A stretch of 64,000 nucleotides of DNA from Cyanophyceae cyanobacterium (GCA_050331735.1 JBHJGN010000077.1:1-64000), one strand, 5' to 3'; shown: positions 20,045-31,419, numbered from the stretch's first letter. The notes: generated from the sequence alone by a model not told the origin. Made by a program: numbers and translations.

Positions 20045-22075
20045 TCATCTAAAGGTTGTCGGAACAGAAACAGTAGACACCCGATTTTGAGCAAAATGTT
20101 CTAATAACATGCGGTGATAAAATACATAGCTACCACCCACTTTTTTCATCAACAGTCGTTCTGAGGCGTAGTCAAGAAAGTGAGCTAGATTCCTAGGAAT
20201 TAAACCCTTAGCCCATAATATAAGTCGTAGGTTGACGTGTTGAATGCAGGCCATTCCGCCTCCAAAAAGTAGCCCTAAAATCAGTCCCCAACTGATTACA
20301 GAAGTGATTGACTTTAATCCTTTAGGAAATAAACTAATCGGAAAAGGAAACAAAATGATTGGGATCAAAATTAGCCAACTAGCTAATGCGACGATCGCGG
20401 CATTCGTGACCGATTTCCGAATACCTTGGTTAGGGATAGTTTTTGTCTCTATTTCTGAGCCTCTTAGCCCACGGATTAATCCGATAATTAGTCCTAAAAT
20501 TACTCCTAAAAATAGTCCAAATACTATTATTGTTAAGCCATTGCTTGGCTCTTTCCAAGTCAGGTAACACCACACTACACTAATCGGGGACAAAATTCGA
20601 CTCCAGCTTAGTCCATCCCTTAAACCATTAAGCAGATCTTTTCGCGTTTTTTTCCAAGGCCACGTCAAAGTTTCAAAGGTTTTTATTTCTGCTTTATCGC
20701 TTCCAAACCATAACAAAACAAGTCCCCATGTTACTCCGTTGATCGCTAATACTTTAAAAAGGTTAATTTTTTCGTTATGCAAGTCTAAAACATAGCCTAG
20801 TAACAAGATTAATAGAACAACCAGCATCCCCATCAGTATACTTCCCACTCGATAAAGTCTTCTTTGGAGATTAGGCTCCAACCAATAGGGCTGCATTCTC
20901 TCAATTAAAAAGACAGATTGAGCTCCCTGAGACATCCGCTGTGCCAGCCAAGTTAGCCAGTATATTGACCTATCTTTCTGGTATTGCTGAACTCCTTTAC
21001 GCTTGAACATCCGATCAATATAAGTATCGAACAGGTGATGACGGCGTTCTTCACTTGAGCAAAACTGCTGTAATAGATCTTCTACTGACCAATCTTGATA
21101 AGCAACACTCATAATACTGAGAATTAGAGGAGTTTGGGCAAAACGTTCTAATTCTCGATCTTGCTGTAATAGCGTTCTTAAGCCAGCGAGGGAATCACCT
21201 GCTTCTGCTAAAAAACGATCTACTTGTTTTTTTGAAAGAGGTTTAATACAGATAGCACTGCTAAGTTGCAAACGCGCTGTCAGTGCCTCATAATCCTCGA
21301 CTCGGCTACAAATCACCATCTCAGTAATATTATGAGTTGTGATAAATTGATTTAAAGCTCTAACGCAAGCGTTGCGCTTTCCAGCTTGTACTTCATCTAA
21401 TCCATCAAGAAATAGAATTAGCTGTTCCTGTTCAATCCAAGGTTCGCTTAGCGTTTTGGGAACTTGATATTTATCTTTTAGTTCTTCAATTAGCCATTTT
21501 TCTATGGGTTGCTGCTTGTATTCCCAAGAAGATAAGTTAAACACTACGGGGATAGGCTTCGTTAAATCTTTTTCGGTTTGAGCGATCGCTTTTTTGGCTA
21601 GCTGTAATAAAGCAATCGTTTTTCCTGAACCAGGCTCTCCTAAAATTAATAGGGTTTTACCTTGTCCGGTTTGATTCAAAATATCTGTTGATTTAAGTTG
21701 GTCAAAAGACTTATCCAAGTCTATTGCTATATCTTCAACGCCTGTAAAAGGTCTAATTACCGCACTTGAATTTTTTTCCCAGTCGAGGTTAATGACATTA
21801 TTTCTATAGAGAGAAGAGTTGAGAAAACCCTCGATCCAAGACTCTTTAACTTTGCGCAATAAGGTGATTCGCTGTCTATATTCGTGTTGAGTTAATACTT
21901 GGCGCACTACTGGAGTTTGACCTAACCAGTCCAGATCATTCGTGACGCGATCGCGATATTGCTCGCGACTGAGAATGGTAATGTTGTGATTGTGAACAGT
22001 GTTATTGTCACCAACCGCAAAGCCTTTTGCTGAAGCTTCAAACCTTTGATTGTATTTAGCACTACGTTCAACCAT
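20045..22075 (-). CDS. NACHT NTPase with N-terminal amyloid-like motif and C-terminal transmembrane region
   Basis: Walker A GEPGSGKT, PVVFNLSSW, Walker B LFLDGLDEV, PLILSI, several TM helices and GGSYVFYHRMLLEHF; GGAG RBS before MVERS. Confidence 0.9.
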   Translation of the reverse strand: MVERSAKYNQRFEASAKGFAVGDNNTVHNHNITILSREQYRDRVTNDLDWLGQTPVVRQVLTQHEYRQRITLLRKVKESWIEGFLNSSLYRNNVINLDWEKNSSAVIRPFTGVEDIAIDLDKSFDQLKSTDILNQTGQGKTLLILGEPGSGKTIALLQLAKKAIAQTEKDLTKPIPVVFNLSSWEYKQQPIEKWLIEELKDKYQVPKTLSEPWIEQEQLILFLDGLDEVQAGKRNACVRALNQFITTHNITEMVICSRVEDYEALTARLQLSSAICIKPLSKKQVDRFLAEAGDSLAGLRTLLQQDRELERFAQTPLILSIMSVAYQDWSVEDLLQQFCSSEERRHHLFDTYIDRMFKRKGVQQYQKDRSIYWLTWLAQRMSQGAQSVFLIERMQPYWLEPNLQRRLYRVGSILMGMLVVLLILLLGYVLDLHNEKINLFKVLAINGVTWGLVLLWFGSDKAEIKTFETLTWPWKKTRKDLLNGLRDGLSWSRILSPISVVWCYLTWKEPSNGLTIIVFGLFLGVILGLIIGLIRGLRGSEIETKTIPNQGIRKSVTNAAIVALASWLILIPIILFPFPISLFPKGLKSITSVISWGLILGLLFGGGMACIQHVNLRLILWAKGLIPRNLAHFLDYASERLLMKKVGGSYVFYHRMLLEHFAQNRVSTVSVPTTFR

Positions 22076-22091
22076 TTTAAGTCTCCAGCAG

Positions 22092-22463
22092 CTAAGAGCC
22101 AAATGTATTTGTTTGAGTGTTGCGATCGCCGAATTGACCCCCTTTAACTTCCCCTTGAAACAGCATGTTATATTTACCTGCTGCTGTTTCTTTAGGATCT
22201 AACTGTTTTAGTATTTCCTGAGCTTTTTCAACAATTTTCTCGTCTCGATCGGCACCAACCTCAGTTAATTTCTTTTTGAGTGGAGCTTCATAGGTGTCAG
22301 GGTCTTTTTCGTATTCTTCTAAAACCATTTCTGCTTTTGGTTCGCCATCAAATTTATGCTTAATTAAAGTTTTTAAGCCTTGATAAGCATCTGGAGCAAC
22401 ATCTCTAGCCGCTTTTACTGCTCCAGCAACCAGTGCAGCAAGAATTAAAGAAATTGGTTCCAT
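22092..22463 (-). CDS. Bell-like helical protein with C-terminal RHIM/BASS-like amyloid motif
   Basis: MEPISLILAALVAGA...DAYQGLKTLI N-terminus; C-terminal GKYN..F.G.VKG.QFGDRNTQTNTF. Confidence 0.8.
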   Translation of the reverse strand: MEPISLILAALVAGAVKAARDVAPDAYQGLKTLIKHKFDGEPKAEMVLEEYEKDPDTYEAPLKKKLTEVGADRDEKIVEKAQEILKQLDPKETAAGKYNMLFQGEVKGGQFGDRNTQTNTFGS

Positions 22464-22617
22464 TACTCATTATTCCTCTGTTAGTTCAATTTTTGGAGTT
22501 GAATTATTCGCTAGATTCAACCCGAACGATAATTTTAAATCTGCAACAAATTTAAAGAAGTAAAGGAATAGGAGGTTTTCTGATTTAATTACACGCCATA
22601 TCTGCTATCTGCGTTTA

Positions 22618-22702
22618 ATATTAATTTGATTCTTTATCCCTCGATCTCATAAAGCTCATTCCGAAGCTCTTGAGAAATCTCATCTAAAAACTCATAGAAA
22701 AG
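22618..22702 (-). promoter_or_regulatory. Repeat-array promoter upstream of the Bell-NACHT operon
   Basis: CTCAT units on + at 22646, 22655, (22667), 22679 and 22691; minus-strand -10 TAATAT at 22623-22618. Confidence 0.6.
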
Positions 22703-22708
22703 TTGGTC

Positions 22709-25700
22709 TTAAACAAAGATCGATTTATAAATGCGGTTCTGAACTTTTAAAGTTCCCTGTTGCTTAACGACTAGCCCCGATAACAGCAGTTCTCTTTCCT
22801 CGGGGCTATTATCTGAAACTATTGCACCTCGGTGTAAAATTTGTCGATAGAGTTCTAGTAGTCGGACGGACTGTTTGCTCTTGAGCAGGCGATCGCGGAT
22901 CGTTCTCAAATGCTCGGGTTCATCCTGATATTCCCAATTCTCGACGATCTTGGTTCGCACCAAGTTTTCGAGCCACTCGGCTTCTTGGTTAGCAGGGATT
23001 GAAGAGGAAGCATCGCGGATAAGTTTGCAGAGCTTTTGGGTTAAAAAGGGCTGTCCGTTCGTCCAGGCAAACACTTCTTTGAGCAGCGTTTGTGGATTAT
23101 TCACTTTGTCCATTAATCCTTGCAGCAACGGTTGCGCTTCATGCTGTTTAAAGCCCTCTAGTTGAATCGCCTGACCGATGTTAAAGGGGGTTCTTTGATA
23201 GTCGGTTGCTAAATCGCTCGGAGTAGCGACACCAAAAAAAGCAAAGGTTAGGCGTCGATACTCTGGATCGATACTGCGCTGATTGTAGCAGGAGCGTATC
23301 AGCGCCAAAAAGTCATTAACGGGAAAATTCAGGCTTAAGAGGCTATCAAGTTCATCGATAAAAATAACTAGATTGGGAAGAGCATTATCTTGGCACTCGA
23401 CTTCAACTAACAAAATTTCTCGAATAAACTGACTCAATTTTTGTACTGGAGAAAGATCTTCTTGCTCTCGCCACCAGGTTTTTAAATCGACTGTCCTCAG
23501 CAAACCAAAGCCATACCATAGCTCTACGGCTAATCCCTTATACCATTGTTCGGGCGTAACGCTTTCGCTGCCAATCCGAGTCAGATCGATCGCTCCGCAG
23601 CTAAACCCTTCGTGCTGGAGGTGACGCATCATGCGCACCATCAAGCTTGACTTGCCCATCTGCCGAGGATTGAGAACATGACAAAACTCTCCTCGTTTTA
23701 ACGCTTTATAAAGACAGCGATCCGCCGAGCGTACCACATAAGTCGGGGCATCCATCGGCAAACTTCCCCCCACTTGATAGTCAAACTCAGAGGATTGTTC
23801 GGCACTTCTGAGCAGTTCATTTTCAAACATGAGTTCTGCTTGAGTCGCTTGGAGAATTTCCAAGGTTTGCGATAGCTCTTGAGTGCGTTCTGAAACTCGT
23901 TGTTCGAGGGTGCGATTGTAGCCTGCTAGCTGTTTGTAGAGACGGGCATTTTCGATAGAGATAGCGGCTTGAGCGGAAAGAATCTTTAAAACTTCTACGC
24001 GATCGCTAGTAAAGGCACCGCTGGTTAAATTATTTTCTAAATAGAGAATCCCGATCAGTTGATCTTGATGAAGCAAAGGAGTACAAAGAATCGATTTGGG
24101 GTGAGTCGCCACTATGTAAGGATCGCCGCTAAACTGTTTTGCCTCAGTCGCGTTGTTTAGCACAACGTTTTTGTGGGTGCGGGCAACATAGTGAACGATG
24201 GCAACGGATAGAATTGGTGCTTGGCAATCGTCTACAGAGTCAATGGCAATTGATTGCAGAACAGCCACCTCATCAGCCTCTACTGCTCCTCCCGCTTCAA
24301 TTGTTAAGTGATCCTCGTTTGCTAGAATCAGAAAGCTTTTTTGAGCGCCAGCATTCTCAATGACAGTTTTCATCAAATTTTTGAGCAATTGGCTCAGCGC
24401 GATCTCCCGCGAAATTGTCTGCGAAGCTTTGATAACGCTGGCTACATCTAATCCTGCCTGGGTCAAGGTTGAAGATAAGCGGTTGGTCGATTCTGAGGCT
24501 AAATGTGGGTATCGTTGCTCTAGGTGCTTCACCTTGGCGTGTGCGCCCCATCTTTGGTAGGCATAATGAGCATCCTGTATGTAGTGGCGAGCAACATGAT
24601 TCTCCTGAGCTAGGTAAAATTGACCAGCCAGTTCGCAGGCAAGAGCTTCTTCATTAAGATAGTTGTTTTCCTGAGCCAGCATAATAGCCTGGTCATACTG
24701 CTCTCGGGCTTCTTGAACTTGCCCCAACACTCGGCAACGTTCTGCCTCGACTAAATGAAGCTTGTGTAAAAAATTCATGGGAGCACTTCGCGCCCACGTT
24801 CGTATCTGCTTTTGATTACTGGCTACTTTTGCTAAAATTTGTTTCTGTTCAACGGCTAAAGACTGAGGGTAGACCGCCAGTCGTGCTAAAGAGTCATAAA
24901 AGTAGAAGAGGGGACAAAGCAGCGTTCCTGTAGAGGTGTCTACATAGGGTTCAGCACAAACAGCATTTTCAAACGCTTCCTGATACTGATTAAACAGGTA
25001 GCAGAGAATTAGTTTGTTGAGATACAGATAGTAAATAGTTGAGCGTTGATTTCTTTGCACATAGAGAGGAAGTTCCTGTTCTTCGTTATAAACCTCCCCG
25101 ACTAGACGGTAGGGTTCGTCTTCTCCAATCAGGTTCAGAACAATTTGATGGATCAGAGTGTCGTTTCTGAGCTGATTAATGGTACTGCTATAGGTAGTGA
25201 TTTCCTGCTCTAATTCAGGTAGGGGACGAGCAGCGCTGAAATAGGAAAGATAACAATAGATTTGGATAGATAGAGCGGCATGTTCAAGATCTCCCGTGGC
25301 TAAACCACTGTGATAGGCAGCTAATAAGGCGCTAAACGTCTGGCTAATGTGGAATTTCCCAGGAATTGTAAAATAGGTGGTCACAAAGAGGGTCATCGCT
25401 TTGAGTTCTTTCGCGTTTAACCGCTCTAACAGACGCAAAGCAAGCTGACCGAATTGGTAGCCAAGCTCAAAGTTTGCGGCTCTACAGAGAATCAATCCGT
25501 AATTCGCATAGGCATGGGTATGAGCAACAGCGTTGCCATAGTGAAGAGCCAAATTAATTTGGGCAAAGATAATGAGCGGCAACAGGTGAGGACGGGCTAT
25601 ATAGGCGGCAGGGCAGAGAGTGAGTAGGATACGGGTAGCGGCAATTTTGGTCGGATCGCTCATCAAAGGCGCATCCAGTAAGTCTTGAGGCTGTTTTTGT

Positions 25701-28330
25701 GCCAAGGATTGTTGCAGCGTCTCGAACCCCAAGCTCACGTCAGATTCAGAAGGCTGCGTCGGTAAATTCACGCCGAGGATTTTCAGCACCGAGATGCCAA
25801 GCTGGAGGGCTTCGGTAAATTTTTTCTGGGCTTTGAGCGCTTGGATTTCGATTTCGTGAACTTTCACCTGCTCTAAGTCAGATTGAGCCTGTTGCCGTAC
25901 CGCCTGAACTAACTGCTCCATCCGCCTAAAATCGTGGTTGAGATAGGCTGCCTCTGCGGCGGCGGTGTGTAGAGCTAGCGATAGGTCGTATTGCTGCCAG
26001 TTTGCTTCAAGTAGTTCTAAGCCGACGGTAAAGTAGGTGAAGGCAGATTGATGGGCGGCTGATGCTTTCGCGATCGCTCCTGCCTGGAGATTTAAGCGGG
26101 CGAGTTGCTCTCGCTCTGGACGGTGGGAGAGCAGTGACCGTCCCTGGTTGAGCTGATTAACAATCGTAAAGGGGTCCGATTCTAGGGGGGTGTGTTTGAG
26201 CAACCGTTGACCAATCTGCCAATGCACAGCCTGGGTTTCTGCCTGGGGAATGAGGCCATAGACCACCTGCTGGATGCGATCGTGGGCAAACTTGTATCCG
26301 GCTGATTTTGATAAACCGTTTACCTCCAGCGACCTTAGCGTGTAGCTGTCGTTCAGGGGTAGAATATATCCCTCGGCGATCGCTGCCTCTAAATCTACTG
26401 CTACTTCCCGAGCCGTTTTTTCAGAGATAATCGCTAATCGGTCTAAAGTAAATCGGTTCCCCAGGCAGGCGGCTAATTTCAACGCGGCCTGAGTTGGTGG
26501 CGTTAGCTGTTTGACCTTCTCCGCCATCAATTGGGCGACATTATCCGCAATCGGCTGGGTTTGAATCTGCTTCAAATCCCACCGCCATTGCCCTCGTTCG
26601 TCATCAAATTCGATCAGCGATCGCTCGTGTAGAGATTTCAAAAACTCGCTGACAAAAAAAGGATTGCCCCCCGTTTTTGCCTGTAACATCGTTGCCAGCG
26701 GACTGGCGGTGGTGGAGTCAACCCGAAAAGTATCGCTGAGCAGTTGGCGAGTATGGGTTTGGGTTAGGGGCAACAGCGAAATTTGATTAACGGTGATAGA
26801 AGACTCGATTTCCCTTAAAGTGAGCAGGAGCGAACTCTCGCTTACTTCGTTGTCTCGATAGGCTCCAATCAGCAGCAAGTATTGGCTATTTCCAGCCGTG
26901 AATAACCGTTGAATAATTTCAAGCGTGGCTCGATCTGCCCACTGCAAATCGTCTAAGAAGATGACGAGGGGATGTTCCGGTTGAGTAAAAACTTTAACAA
27001 AATCTTGCCATACCCGATGAAAACGATTTTGCGCCTCTGTCGGCGCAAGGTTTGGGAGGGCTGCTTGGGAACCGATAATCAATTCTAAGTCGGGCAGAAC
27101 ATCGAGCATCACCTGTCCATTTGCCCCCAAAGCCACCAACAGTTTTTCCCGCCATTCTGCAATCTTGGGTTTACTTTCAGTCAGTAGCTGTTGGATTAAT
27201 GACTGAAACGCTTGAATTAGGGGAGCATAGGGAATGTTGCGCTGTAGCCGCTCAGATTTCCCAGAGATAAAGTAGCCTCGCTGACGGGTCAGGGGCTGAT
27301 ACACCTCCTGCACCAGAGCGGATTTACCCACCCCTGAATGTCCGCAAATCACCATCATTTCGCTAGCGCCTTGGCTCACGCGATCGCAGGCAGCTAATAA
27401 GCGAGCCAACTCTGCTTCTCTTCCGTAGAGCTTTGGGGAAATTTGAAACCGATCGGAAATATCCACTTGACCTAATGGAAAGGAAGCAATTTGCCCTTGG
27501 GTTTGCCACTGATGCCAACAGTGTTCCAAATCTGCCTTGAGTCCAAAAGCCGATTGATAGCGATCTTCGGCGTTTTTGGCCATCAGCTTGAGCACAATGT
27601 CTGAAATTGCCGGGGGAAGGTTGGCATTATGTTGATGGGGAGGAAGCGGAGATTTGGCAATATGGCCGTGAATTAATTCCAGAACATCCTCTGTAGGAAA
27701 GGGCAACCGACCAGTGAGCAGTTCATAAAAGGTTACCCCGAGAGAGTAAAAATCCGTTCGCTCATCGATTGCCCGATTCATCCGCCCCGTCTGCTCTGGG
27801 GAAATATACGTTAATGTTCCCCTTAATACCTTTGGATGACGAGTTGAGTTTTTCGGGGTCAGTAGGAGCGAGCTACCGAAGTCGATCAGTTTGACCTGCT
27901 CAGTCGCGGGACTCCAAACAATATTGGACGGGTTGATATCGTTGTGGACAACGTGCTGTTGATGCACTTGGGCAAGAATACGAGCAAGTTGAATGGCAAG
28001 CGGGAGAAACTCCGTGACAGAGAGAGGGCGCTCTTCAATCACCCGATCGAGAGCTTGCCCCCCAAAATCCTCTAAAACCAAGAGCCAGCGGTCCTGCTCA
28101 TTCTCTAAACCATAGACTTGTACTACCCCTGGCAAGTTAAGTTGATTGAGTTTTTTGGTGGTTTCATACTCCTGTCTAAACCAAGCAATTTCCTCGGGTG
28201 TCGGGTAAGGCTGTTTGAGAAATTTGAGAATGACGGGTTGACAATCTGCTAATCGTCGTCCGCGATAGACTTGCGAGCTAGCGCTTTCGTGAAGCTGTTC
28301 GATAATTTGGTAGTCTAAAACACAAATCAC
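22709..28330 (-). CDS. Ser/Thr kinase - STAND ATPase - TPR-like - GAF - AAA_35 multidomain protein
   Basis: [11 protein letters not shown] and [12 protein letters not shown] (kinase); GHSGVGKS and DDLQWAD (ATPase); ILYLENN...QAAISIENA (GAF); YQVGGSL..DAPTYV and RQMGKSSL (AAA_35). Confidence 0.9.
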
Positions 28331-28348
28331 GACGCTCTCCGTTTGCTT

Positions 28349-29878
28349 CTAGAACCAGGTCAGATGTCTAGGCTGCCGTTGTTGCCGTTCAGCAGATCGC
28401 TTTTGCAGTGCTTCTACCAAGGCTTTCTCACTTGTGTCTTCTGGGGAGGGACCGTACAAAATCCCGACAACCTTTTTCATCTTCTCCACGTCGTAGTGAT
28501 GTTCGCCATGTTCGTGTTCGTGACTAGGACCAGCCCAAGGGGAATCGGTGTGAACCCACTGCCCTTTCTCGAACCAATCTACGCCTTGAATAACCGTCTT
28601 CACCACCTCACCGGGATGAGCCGCTTCATGGGCGCTGAACCAGTCATTGATGCGGTCATCCACCCAGCCGTGCAGCCGCCAGAACACCGGGTTGACGTGA
28701 GAGGAATAGAACTCGCCCAAAAAATCGTATTCGGGGCGATCCCAAAAGTCACGGATGTCGTTGTCTTCCCGTCCAGATGGCAGTACGCCGAGCGCGGGAT
28801 GATAGGGGGCTGATGTCCAACGCATGTGCATATCGTTATGAACCGAGTACTCAAGCAGTGCACCAAGTTCTCCGAGCGAGAGGGTACTGAGGTACTGTTT
28901 GTTCTTAAACTCCCGGTCCCACCACGCCATCCGCGACCAGTAGTGTCCGTCTGTCTTTAATAGAGCAATGCGGCGGTTGGTGATTTCGTCGGTCGGATCG
29001 ATCCAGGCTGGAGGAATAGCAAATCCGTCTGGGTTGCCGGGGGTGGGGAGAACTGGCGGGTCTTCCTCGTAGTCTGGTTCGGCTCCCACAGAACCGGGAC
29101 GGGGAATCGTCGGCCATCCGGCGATCGGCTCCTGTCCAGCTTCCTTGATCTTGCGATTCACTTCTTGAATCATCTGTCGGTGCATGAAGAGAAAGTCCTC
29201 ACCGGAGCCATTGCGAATTAGGGGAGCACCTGTCGCATCGACTGACGGACGTTCTTCTTCGCCGCCTGGTTGCCATCCAAGTTCTCGAATTGCCTGTTTT
29301 TTCTCTTCGTTGATCATCGGATTAAGCCACAATCCGCGCACACTGTGCCAAACGGTATGGTGGAGCCGATGGTGTTTCGATGCCAGCATCTTGAGAACTT
29401 CCTGTGGAAGCGGAATGACCGTTCTTGGCTCAGGGAAATCCCGTTGAACAGCAACGAAAGAGGCTACTACGCCAGCCGGACTATCCTCGCCATGCTCCAC
29501 AGTTCGGATTACCGTTCCTACCAACGCAGGTCGCTGATTCTTTCCGTTCGGCCACTCAGGGACAAAATAGGCGACGTAATCGTACACCCACCCCTGGGCA
29601 AATGTTCCCAACACGCCAGTCCCTTGAAATCTTAGGGAAAATGGGTTGCCTGTCTGGAGCGAGCCTTGGAGTGAGAGTCGGGCGTCATTCATCTTCGGCG
29701 GGTCACTCCTAAAGGCAAGCTGTCCGCGAATCGTCCCAGGCTCGGCAGCCGCCTCAAATACCATCTCACCTTCCCCAAAGATGAGGTTTTTGAGCTTGTC
29801 ACAATCATCGCTGACTGGCTCAGTAATGTTGTTATAGCTGCGGTAGGTCCAAGCCCCGCTCAGAAATTCGTTGGTCAT
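28349..29878 (-). CDS. PvdP-like tyrosinase (N-terminal beta-barrel + type-3 dicopper domain)
   Basis: HRLHHTVWH, GEDFLFMHRQM, HNDMHMRW and SSHVNPVFWRLHGWVD copper-site motifs; AGGAG RBS; no signal peptide seen. Confidence 0.78.
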   Translation of the reverse strand: MTNEFLSGAWTYRSYNNITEPVSDDCDKLKNLIFGEGEMVFEAAAEPGTIRGQLAFRSDPPKMNDARLSLQGSLQTGNPFSLRFQGTGVLGTFAQGWVYDYVAYFVPEWPNGKNQRPALVGTVIRTVEHGEDSPAGVVASFVAVQRDFPEPRTVIPLPQEVLKMLASKHHRLHHTVWHSVRGLWLNPMINEEKKQAIRELGWQPGGEEERPSVDATGAPLIRNGSGEDFLFMHRQMIQEVNRKIKEAGQEPIAGWPTIPRPGSVGAEPDYEEDPPVLPTPGNPDGFAIPPAWIDPTDEITNRRIALLKTDGHYWSRMAWWDREFKNKQYLSTLSLGELGALLEYSVHNDMHMRWTSAPYHPALGVLPSGREDNDIRDFWDRPEYDFLGEFYSSHVNPVFWRLHGWVDDRINDWFSAHEAAHPGEVVKTVIQGVDWFEKGQWVHTDSPWAGPSHEHEHGEHHYDVEKMKKVVGILYGPSPEDTSEKALVEALQKRSAERQQRQPRHLTWF

Positions 29879-29963
29879 GATGTTCTCCTTGGTTCGCGGT
29901 CGGTTATCAGCTTGCGGCTATATACTCTACAGGCATGAGCATGGCGGCTTTAAGCTGTGCTTC

Positions 29964-30028
29964 ATAGTATTCTTGCTCTGAGCCTTTTAATCTCATAAAA
30001 CTCATAGAAAAGCTCATAAAAAACTTAG
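29964..30028 (-). promoter_or_regulatory. Repeat-array promoter upstream of the tyrosinase-kinase operon
   Basis: CTCAT units on + at 29992, 30001 and 30013; minus-strand -10 TACTAT at 29969-29964. Confidence 0.6.
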
Positions 30029-30039
30029 GCGATCGCCCT

Positions 30040-31419
30040 CTAGCTCTCAAAAACCGATGTGATGGACAGATGTTGTCCCTTGGTAAAATACTGCCGATAC
30101 AGTTCGCACCCGGCGATCGCGCGATTGCCGCAAAGTTTAATTAACCCCATACTGCATAGCTTGTGGGTTTGAATCGGATCTAAGGAAACAGGTTCAGCGG
30201 CATTTAGAACCTGATGAAGAGCCTGCATCAACTCAGGCTGTTGTTCTAGGGTGGCCCAATGACGCTGCAGGTGATGAGCATATATTCCTGTCGCCGTGAA
30301 CGCCGTTTTTAGCAGTTGCGATAGCGTTATTTCTCCCCGATTCAGATGATAGAGTGCCAGATTCACCAGTGCAGGATGACCCCCGACTAGAGACATCAGT
30401 TGCTGGGCTTCTTTGTCATCCGTCCAGTCCAGTCCGTAACGTTGGGCTAGGAGCTGTACTTCCTCTGGAGTAAAATCCTCTAACTGAATGGGTAGCCCGA
30501 CATTGAATGGGGATTGGTTACAGTCGAGAGGAACGTAAATTTCTGTTGAGTGAACCACAATCAGACGCAGCTTTCGCCAAATCGGTAATCTTTTTGTTTC
30601 TTCGTACCACGACCGCAACAGCGGTAAAAAATCCTGCGCCACCTGCGGATGCTCGAAAATCTGGTTCACTTCATCTAGCGCCAAGACGAGGGGAGCGTCG
30701 ATTGACTCTAATAAATAGTCTCGAAAGTAAAGGGTGCAGCTCAGATTACTGCCCAAATCTTTGTCCCAATACTCGTCTAGCATCGGTTTAAGCTCAAGCT
30801 GGCGAGAGATACTCGTACACAGCCAGCGCAAAAATTGATTCAAATTACCCAAAATTGATTGCTCGACTTGCTCTAGGTTCAGGCTGACGGTATGGTATCC
30901 CAGGTGAGAGGCGTAGTTAAGGCTCCTCAGCAGCAGTGAGGTTTTCCCCATTTCTCTCGGAGCCTTAATCCGAATTAACGCTCCTGATTTTCTCACTTCT
31001 CGCTCGACTTGTTCCTTAACAGAAGAGCGTTCGAGGTAAAAGGGAGAGTCAAGCGGAACTGAGCCGCTGGGGTAGCAAGGTGACGGATCCTGGTTGACAT
31101 GGGGGAACGCTTCCGCCAGAGGTGACCTTAAAGGTCTTGTTTGAGGGTCGGGTCTGGTGGTGACGTAAGACTCCAGTAATCCCCGACAGTTCTTTTTGGT
31201 CACGCGCTGACCGACGACCTTAGAAAGTCGCTGATACAGCTCTGGGGCAGCAACGTTGGTAAAGTAGCCAGGACTATAGCCTGCCTCGATTGCAATCTGG
31301 TTGTAGGTTTTATACTGCCAAATACCCTGTAGGATCAGCATTTCTGCGGGATTGAGGGGTCGATTTTGGCTCTCAATGAGCTGGCGGTCAACAATTTTAC
31401 AGAGATTATCTAAATTCAT
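30040..31419 (-). CDS. N-terminal HTH (vWA-MoxR-associated type) + AAA_35 STAND ATPase
   Basis: LILQGIWQYKTYNQIAIEAGYS...LSKVVGQRVTKKN (HTH); GSVPLDSPFYLER, APREMGKTSL, LALDEV, SPFNVG and GGHP (AAA_35). Confidence 0.85.
   Translation of the reverse strand: MNLDNLCKIVDRQLIESQNRPLNPAEMLILQGIWQYKTYNQIAIEAGYSPGYFTNVAAPELYQRLSKVVGQRVTKKNCRGLLESYVTTRPDPQTRPLRSPLAEAFPHVNQDPSPCYPSGSVPLDSPFYLERSSVKEQVEREVRKSGALIRIKAPREMGKTSLLLRSLNYASHLGYHTVSLNLEQVEQSILGNLNQFLRWLCTSISRQLELKPMLDEYWDKDLGSNLSCTLYFRDYLLESIDAPLVLALDEVNQIFEHPQVAQDFLPLLRSWYEETKRLPIWRKLRLIVVHSTEIYVPLDCNQSPFNVGLPIQLEDFTPEEVQLLAQRYGLDWTDDKEAQQLMSLVGGHPALVNLALYHLNRGEITLSQLLKTAFTATGIYAHHLQRHWATLEQQPELMQALHQVLNAAEPVSLDPIQTHKLCSMGLIKLCGNRAIAGCELYRQYFTKGQHLSITSVFES

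Follow-up and report, generated by a model that had tools for sequence, protein, structure and literature searches.

Two kinds of described transcriptional activator come closest to the system reported here. The boxes recognised by MalT of Escherichia coli carry GATGAG-like text, with the promoter-proximal one centred near -37.5; both features resemble those of the locus described below. MalT multimerises and, at the promoters that depend on it, binds several asymmetric boxes cooperatively in direct orientation (PMC4381067; PMC6906923). SARP and SARP-LAL regulators of Streptomyces (e.g., PimR) bind three plus two direct heptamers with 11- and 10-nucleotide (nt) periods, they do so cooperatively, and SARP sites overlap the -35 element (PMC5930380). 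The present locus lies in a 64,000-nt stretch of DNA from a Cyanophyceae cyanobacterium (GCA_050331735.1, JBHJGN010000077.1:1-64000; hereafter the window), in which two arrays of short direct repeats, ATGAG on the coding strand, each stand at a fixed distance from a -10-like box and one of which follows the gene for a 459-amino-acid (aa) protein of the Pfam family AAA_35 (PF14516). As proposed here, the system works like MalT and SARP-LAL but belongs to neither. AAA_35 is a large, mostly cyanobacterial family, listed in one survey as an accessory domain of some cyanobacterial sigma-70 homologs (PMC11119718). No function for AAA_35 or PF14516 was found in the literature searched, outside which lay subscription journals and supplements; searches of the same literature with the motif strings, and for cyanobacterial LuxR or STAND direct-repeat activators and Moorea promoters, returned nothing on the system and only an unrelated human paper. 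Within that literature, the motif was found to be without earlier description and the link between AAA_35 and a DNA motif to be new.

The two arrays are united by the 16-mer AAAACTCATAGAAAAG, which direct reading confirms, as had been reported, exactly at 22687-22702 and 29997-30012. No further copy occurs in the window at up to two mismatches (0.05 expected from shuffles), and the reverse complement has no other occurrence in the genome of 99 contigs and 5,574,582 bases. Array 1 (22646-22695, minus strand; weight-matrix score 85.7 bits) comprises five units at 22646-22650, 22655-22659, 22667-22671, 22679-22683, and 22691-22695, spaced by 9, 12, 12, and 12 nt; array 2 (29992-30017, minus strand; 66.1 bits) comprises three ATGAG units at 29992-29996, 30001-30005, and 30013-30017, spaced by 9 and 12 nt from proximal to distal, and fits the core pattern ATGAG-N7-ATGAG-NTTT-ATGAG. 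The positions and spacings given in the original prediction thus stand; its description of all units as CTCAT does not, the third unit of array 1 from the promoter being CTCTT (AAGAG on the coding strand), with one mismatch. The 16-mer is the commonest repeat unit of the family consensus and occupies non-equivalent units in the two arrays. Downstream of the proximal units lie the -10-like boxes TAATAT (22618-22623) and TACTAT (29964-29969), both on the minus strand, and the 22-nt distance claimed for them was found at both sites. Each box is followed by N6-CAG (22611-22609 and 29957-29955), which coincides with the starts anticipated earlier; transcription is accordingly predicted, from sequence, to begin near 22609-22611 and 29955-29957 on the minus strand. 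A consensus scan found no TTGACA-like -35 at 16-18 nt upstream of the boxes on the minus strand at either site; between 22400 and 22760 there is neither a sigma-70 type promoter with a -35 nor a terminator, and no terminator was found near either window site. Both arrays begin 13-23 nt past the stop of an upstream gene ending in AAA_35. Most of the interval that separates the 459-aa gene's stop from the distal unit of array 2 is taken up by the HIP1 palindrome GCGATCGC, at 30029-30036.

Across genomes, the arrays behave like promoter elements. The orientation census covered the 51 instances flanked by 1 kb or more on each side, scored against downstream open reading frames (ORFs) of at least 100 aa. 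The nearest such ORF is opposite in two instances and absent in one, the median leader from array to start codon is 136 nt, and only one of the 51 arrays falls within such an ORF. The alternative named alongside the original prediction, duplication of the 3' flank of the two AAA_35 genes, is rejected because the upstream neighbour varies elsewhere (in 30 instances it is co-directional, in 12 it is divergent, and in 9 there is none within 800 nt) while the downstream gene is co-directional in 48 of the 51. When the core pattern was applied without requiring a box, TAnnnT was found at exactly 22 nt in 13 of 21 sites (8 genomes), and the sites lacking it lie mostly inside long arrays or are shifted by 1 nt. 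At one locus of genome G125 (L007), the array begins 170 nt and four stops past the gene of a 72% identical relative of the 459-aa protein and is followed at 22 nt by TAAGAT and then N6-CAG.

The motif is real and lineage-specific. The pattern ATGAG-N7-ATGAG-N4-ATGAG-N22-TAnnnT was scanned against one genome per species (185,579 species) and returned 114 stretches, of which 78 have cyanobacterial titles and two more, titled 'uncultured bacterium', match the consensus; the remaining 34 come from other phyla, are without T-rich spacers, and look like chance matches. Cyanobacterial loci were found in Moorena, Symploca, Caldora, Lyngbya, Nostoc, Scytonema, Tolypothrix, Brasilonema, Chlorogloeopsis, Pleurocapsa, Hyella, Waterburya, Xenococcaceae, Prochloraceae, and others. 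An NTTT proximal spacer is present in 76 of 110 distinct instances, and 74 of these 76 are from cyanobacterial loci. The consensus reads (ATGAGTTTTTnn)n ATGAGTTTT ATGAG (A/T)TT ... AAAC TAAnAT, with 3 to 7 units, a design that may be abbreviated as (ATGAG-T-rich, 12-nt period)n, ATGAG-N4-ATGAG, N22, TAnnnT; the T-runs, the fourth unit, and the AAAC ahead of the box are conserved although absent from the search pattern. When 73 arrays from other genomes were used to build a weight matrix, just two sites in the window genome, arrays 1 and 2, scored above 15 bits, and the reversed-sequence control gave no site there. The conservation near orthologs that had been proposed as a check was borne out, in that arrays of the same geometry lie beside, or in the genomes of, relatives 60-75% identical to the 459-aa protein in many cyanobacterial genera. 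Two very long stretches of several arrays in G117 (C31:19808-20065 and C111:8130-8339; loci L149 and L168) have ATGAGG units replacing ATGAGT. A dispersed repeat with ATGAGCAAGTATATGGGATTTAGGAG, on at least five contigs of G075, was caught by the relaxed pattern and is unrelated to the arrays.

The 459-aa protein (30040-31419, minus strand) is a full-length AAA_35 member (E 1.6e-151; 504.2 bits against a cut-off of 27; profile positions 1-330 of 331). Pfam and structural models together divide it into a putative LuxR/GerE-type helix-turn-helix (HTH) at about residues 1-88, a linker, and an AAA_35 NTPase with a C-terminal winged helix at residues 116-446. The best Foldseek matches of the full AlphaFold2 (AF2) model, whose predicted local distance difference test score (pLDDT) is 77, are the archaeal ATPases 2qen (E 1.4e-9) and 2fna (PAB2304 and SSO1545), with further matches to plant NLR resistosomes (NRC4), ORC/Cdc6, Avs3, MalT (8bob; rank 22, E 5e-6), and CED-4. 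The protein is, by this model, a STAND/ORC-like NTPase with a winged helix, the fold alone not separating STAND from ORC/Cdc6-like AAA+ proteins. Walker A (G158, K159, T160, S161) and the Walker B residue D249 are invariant in 21 relatives. The model of the N-terminal domain (95 residues, pLDDT 88.8) retrieved LuxR-type DNA-binding domains in 14 of the 15 top rows of a wide VIA-align comparison; the matches include RcsB (Z 7.5; root-mean-square deviation 2.5 Å over 67 residues), NarL-DNA (Z 7.1), and GerE (Z 6.5), with deviations ranging from 1.8 to 3.0 Å over 63-69 residues and all of these Z-scores in the range under 8, which may reflect a common fold arrangement. With moderate confidence, and at the level of the fold only, the modelled domain can be assigned to the LuxR/GerE-type HTH, the class used by MalT.

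These features both connect the protein to the described regulators and separate it from them. In common with MalT, it would combine a P-loop NTPase and winged helix with a LuxR-type HTH acting at multiple boxes. It is not a member of the MalT family because it has no sensor domain: no SUPR, TPR, or WD40 domain was found, the chain ends 13 residues past the AAA_35 match, and there is no other Pfam domain or folded part in the model. In addition, the domain order is reversed relative to MalT, with the HTH N-terminal here; the arm and SUPR sensor are missing; the AAA_35 NTPase is closest to the archaeal 2qen and 2fna; the 5-mer boxes, accompanied by T-runs, recur every 12 nt; and both the lineage and the regulon are different. 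The protein resembles SARP-LAL regulators, which control secondary metabolism, in having an N-terminal DNA-binding domain joined to an ATP-binding module, and their triplet-plus-doublet direct repeats, with a shorter spacer between the two groups, resemble the arrays. The SARP-LAL DNA-binding domain, however, is OmpR-type with BTAD, whereas a LuxR-type fold is modelled here and Pfam detects neither Trans_reg_C nor BTAD; likewise, SARP repeats are heptamers on one helix face, whereas here 5-mers recur at 12- and 9-nt steps.

The distribution of the arrays points to the same protein. Among 150 other genomes sampled from the same order (the window organism's own family holds only this genome), the core pattern was found in seven (G010, G029, G056, G080, G117, G125, and G142) and the reversed control pattern in none. 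Six of these seven fall among the ten genomes that encode a full-length relative at least 60% identical to the 459-aa protein (Fisher p 1e-7, a value overstated as the genomes are related), and the array-bearing genomes together with the window genome (family f1) represent six families. At up to two mismatches, variant arrays appear in G058 and G087 as well, 0.2-5 kb away from the relative in each. Five further array genomes, chosen for having no relative in the 3-kb flank, all hold a 71-75% identical relative elsewhere. A relative at the 60% threshold is encoded in the DNA around 15 of 76 array loci (up to 3 kb on each side, 18 of the 76 having 300-nt flanks only), and within 330 nt downstream of 29 relatives' loci an array occurs only at the G125 locus mentioned above, the others being further off or on other contigs. 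The strongest argument comes from a natural domain swap. In 13 genomes, an AAA_35 protein that is 62-68% identical in the core has a different N-terminal domain and lies beside giant-kinase paralogs; the replacement gives a sub-threshold match to the Cro/C1-type HTH_26 (E 0.0015), or in some cases is a second AAA_35. Because these 13 genomes contain no arrays, the swap implicates the N-terminal domain, suggesting from sequence comparison that it is the reader of ATGAG.

Taken together, these observations favour, at a probability of roughly 0.68, the reading that each array forms the upstream half of an activator-dependent promoter, that both promoters belong to one conserved cyanobacterial type, and that the 459-aa protein reads them. 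What we infer is that the protein binds and multimerises, that it activates and does not repress, where the transcripts start, and how the kinase introduced below contributes; these elements would combine as follows. The proximal ATGAG would lie at about -39 to -35 and replace the -35 hexamer, with the second unit 9 nt upstream, further units at 12-nt steps, and a T-run after each. The N-terminal LuxR-type HTH would read ATGAG, one unit per subunit, and the AAA_35 NTPase would join the subunits into a nucleotide-dependent multimer that binds cooperatively, its proximal subunit recruiting RNA polymerase as MalT and SARP regulators do. At this locus the outputs would be an operon of a tyrosinase and a giant kinase, starting near 29956, and an operon of a Bell-like protein and a NACHT protein, starting near 22610. 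The earlier proposal of phased sites for an oligomeric activator, identified with the adjacent HTH-AAA_35 protein, gains from the HTH fold and the co-occurrence; the word 'phased' proves loose, as only the first and third units, 21 nt apart (12 + 9), are separated by two helical turns. Each 12-nt step would turn a subunit by approximately 50 degrees, giving a spiral rather than a flat assembly.

Several points weigh against this reading. The 12-nt period is not the helical repeat, so that the one-face binding of SARPs cannot extend to the distal units. The basis of the LuxR-type call is Z 7.5 and a profile-versus-PDB E of 0.5; Foldseek returned no match for the N-terminal domain at E up to 0.001, and Pfam sees no HTH in the 459-aa protein. 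The co-occurrence was counted in related genomes and with a pattern defined on this locus; G032 and G075 hold a full-length relative at least 60% identical and have no array even at two mismatches, and G080 bears arrays with just a 53% identical relative. The regulator gene has no array of its own in the window genome, unlike in G125 and G142. Lastly, both arrays share the reading frame of the gene whose stop codon precedes them (22630-22711 and 29953-30042, minus strand), an unexplained placement that is probably due to chance, at 1 in 9 for two sites. In the array 2 frame, TAG is followed by four codons and then TAA, and the array of the G125 locus L007 stands in the same frame relation.

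A candidate sensor or partner is encoded between the two arrays. The 1873-aa protein (22709-28330, minus strand), predicted to be the second gene product of the array 2 operon, combines Pfam Pkinase, AAA_16, and GAF domains with a C-terminal AAA_35 domain (114.9 bits). Because the 459-aa protein has no sensor domain, this kinase is the most likely input, which it would deliver by phosphorylation or AAA_35 co-assembly. A contact predicted between the AAA_35 of the 459-aa protein and the C-terminal module of the kinase scored 0.55 (best of three controls, 0.00), with runs agreeing in at least 83% of contacts and a partner pLDDT of at least 80. Of 157 solved complexes, 116 reach the pass mark of this score, as do 2 of 215 mismatches, and passing scores of 0.60 or less comprise 18 of the 157 solved complexes and both passing mismatches; the model thus gives weak support to an AAA_35-AAA_35 contact, and its pass may reflect only likeness to solved AAA+/NLR oligomers. 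Kinase relatives (50-80% identical) lie just upstream of an array in four instances and follow an array and an RPE65-like gene in six. In G125, the order is array, 582-aa protein, HTH-AAA_35, array, RPE65-like gene, and kinase; in G142, the two halves converge, each headed by an array; and in G117, an array stands ahead of an ECF-like sigma gene divergent from the regulator gene. The kinase relative of G125 is split (L170, 7669-13788) into ORFs of 1084 and 953 aa lying 3 nt apart, and its G142 counterpart is a single ORF of 2052 aa.

Downstream of the arrays, the core of the system is stable and the payload varies. The 50 downstream proteins examined include seven haloperoxidase-like proteins, six RPE65-like proteins, six ECF-like sigma proteins, and two each of amine oxidases, TP_methylases, HTH_32 proteins, and one unknown family; 23 are singletons, among them a LodA-type lysine oxidase, an FMO, a caspase, an astacin, a YcaO protein, an amidohydrolase, an AraC regulator, and a response regulator. 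The recurrent 560-580-aa protein looks like a vanadium haloperoxidase, with a language-model score of 0.99 to a cluster in which 71% of members carry VCPO_2nd, a cluster that may be its own. The window tyrosinase and the Bell-like and NACHT pair are unique among the downstream genes examined. The window genome encodes a haloperoxidase-like relative (74-78% identical) at C39:54905-56590, and no array was found upstream of it (best matrix score -54.6); regulon membership therefore differs between genomes. A broader but tentative extension, which we consider somewhat improbable as a whole, is that these genes form a conserved cyanobacterial danger-response regulon, in which the giant kinase-STAND-GAF-AAA_35 protein, as sensor, would assemble by way of its AAA_35 module with the sensor-less LuxR-HTH-AAA_35 protein into a filament on the arrays and so deploy an oxidative and cell-death arsenal. 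The arsenal, on the same doubtful footing, would comprise vanadium-haloperoxidase-like proteins, RPE65-like oxygenases, tyrosinase, amine and lysine oxidases, caspase, astacin, ECF-like sigma factors, and the Bell-NACHT pair, differing by genome. Positive feedback would operate in G125 and G142, where regulator genes lie behind arrays.

Four other explanations of the arrays were weighed. The one that fares best, though unlikely, accepts them as real promoter elements and assigns their reading to another factor, an alternative sigma or an unlinked regulator, with the HTH-AAA_35 protein as a mere member of the regulon. Sigma genes are often self-controlled, and the six ECF-like sigma genes among the 50 downstream genes, the position of the HTH-AAA_35 gene itself downstream of an array in G125 and G142, and the relatives without arrays in G032 and G075 would all suit it. 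Against it, none of the six sigma-like genes has a relative in the window genome (tblastn E 1e-10), yet both arrays there are intact, and the sigma-like family is an unlikely array reader; the 13 genomes that keep the kinase and AAA_35 core with another N-terminal domain are without arrays; and the remaining recurrent neighbours are enzymes. Among the recurrently linked genes, only the 459-aa type both carries a DNA-binding domain and occurs in the window genome; besides the sigma-like genes, the others encode the haloperoxidase-like protein, the RPE65-like protein, and the kinase.

It is less probable again that the 459-aa protein acts on the arrays as a repressor or roadblock, a role in which it would also stop read-through at the window sites. 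Such a role would fit the coverage of the -35 position by the proximal unit and the placement of the window arrays so shortly past an upstream stop with no terminator between, but the missing -35 hexamer is the usual mark of activator dependence, and the 12 of 51 arrays divergent from their upstream gene and the nine with none within 800 nt have nothing to block. A transcribed RNA element (a leader, a small RNA, or a 3' untranslated-region signal) or the end of a small mobile repeat appears very improbable. The whole 70-nt stretch, spacer included, is conserved, and the downstream genes differ widely, as expected of a portable cassette; nevertheless, Rfam gives no match at E up to 1 in 22000-30500, the leader RNAs show no better folding than shuffled sequences (z 0.34 and -0.75), the genome contains just two copies, and the fixed TAnnnT distance and strict orientation suit a promoter. 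In the minimum-energy fold of the leader of the 123-aa gene (22463-22611, minus strand; z 0.34, no better than shuffles), CCUCCU pairs with the ribosome-binding region. Leftover or read-through coding sequence, in which the AAA_35 C-terminal tail was duplicated with its 3' end, is hardly credible: both arrays are in frame and read as a helix-like ...LFYEF... with spacings that are all multiples of 3, and the AAA_35 paralogs of the window genome (eight AAA_35 domains in total) run on into coiled-coil linkers, but only one array of the 51 lies in an ORF, it is ATGAG and not a codon that is kept (the preceding base varies, as in TAT, GAT, and AAT, and every 'E' codon is GAG), the array of locus L007 lies four stops past the gene, and 6 of 10 relatives of the 1873-aa protein stop at the same residue as it does.

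If the arrays are indeed read by the HTH-AAA_35 protein, one subfamily of AAA_35 gains a proposed job as a transcription activator with a defined DNA motif. A regulon prediction would follow for dozens of genera, including the natural-product-rich Moorena, Symploca, Nostoc, and Scytonema and the Pleurocapsales. NLR-like, caspase, and amyloid cell-death modules would come, together with oxidases and haloperoxidases, under one predicted switch, which makes the timing of their deployment approachable via a reporter on the 70-nt promoter. The pair of promoter and regulator could also be put to use for orthogonal induction, provided that its signal is identified first. If the danger-response regulon is true, it would parallel, at the level of transcription, what eukaryotes achieve with their oxidative burst, phenoloxidase, and NLR responses.

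Between 18.2 and 31.4 kb of the window, every gene is on the minus strand, in the transcription order 459-aa AAA_35 gene, array 2, tyrosinase, 1873-aa kinase gene, array 1, 123-aa gene, NACHT gene, and FAD monooxygenase. The predicted first gene of the array 2 operon (28349-29878, minus strand) encodes a PvdP-like tyrosinase of 509 aa (NCBIfam tyrosinase_PvdP, E 2.8e-91); its 306.6 bits fall below the 625-bit equivalog cut-off, so that it is to be read as a relative of the PvdP tyrosinase only. The predicted first gene of the array 1 operon (22092-22463, minus strand) encodes a 123-aa protein that has no match in Pfam or NCBIfam, Bell profiles included, and shares a motif with the product of the next gene, a 685-aa NACHT NTPase (20045-22102, minus strand; Pfam NACHT E 2.1e-10) that overlaps its 3' end. 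Residues 95-119 of the former and 14-38 of the latter are identical at 11 of 25 positions (E 4e-4; BLASTP, single comparison). The recurrence of a short C-terminal effector motif at the N-terminus of an adjacent NLR is a layout described for bacterial amyloid signalling (bioRxiv 10.1101/2020.01.06.895854); the array 1 operon has this Bell/BASS layout, and the cited work covers the protein pair and not its transcription. As listed, the NACHT ORF begins with TTG and overlaps the 123-aa gene by 11 nt (22092-22102); an alternative ATG nine codons later (MVERSAKYN...) would bring the common motif closer to the N-terminus.

Further repeats accompany related AAA_35 genes. The sister group with the Cro-type N-terminal domain (loci L021, L022, L025, L030, L033, and L034 of G050, G043, G132, G044, G124, and G086, respectively) may read boxes of its own; counting of 8-mers found no common boxes downstream of the six genes. 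At L030, approximately 60-200 nt past the stop of the Cro-type AAA_35 gene, there are five copies of a repeat of about 33 nt, each with GCGATCGC. A TAACTGA-type direct repeat is reported to be abundant in Beggiatoaceae and some cyanobacteria (PMC4679880). Tandem heptamers of this type, AGTTATC / ACTGATA, follow several AAA_35 genes (at L006, downstream of a relative of the regulator, and at L025 and L026).

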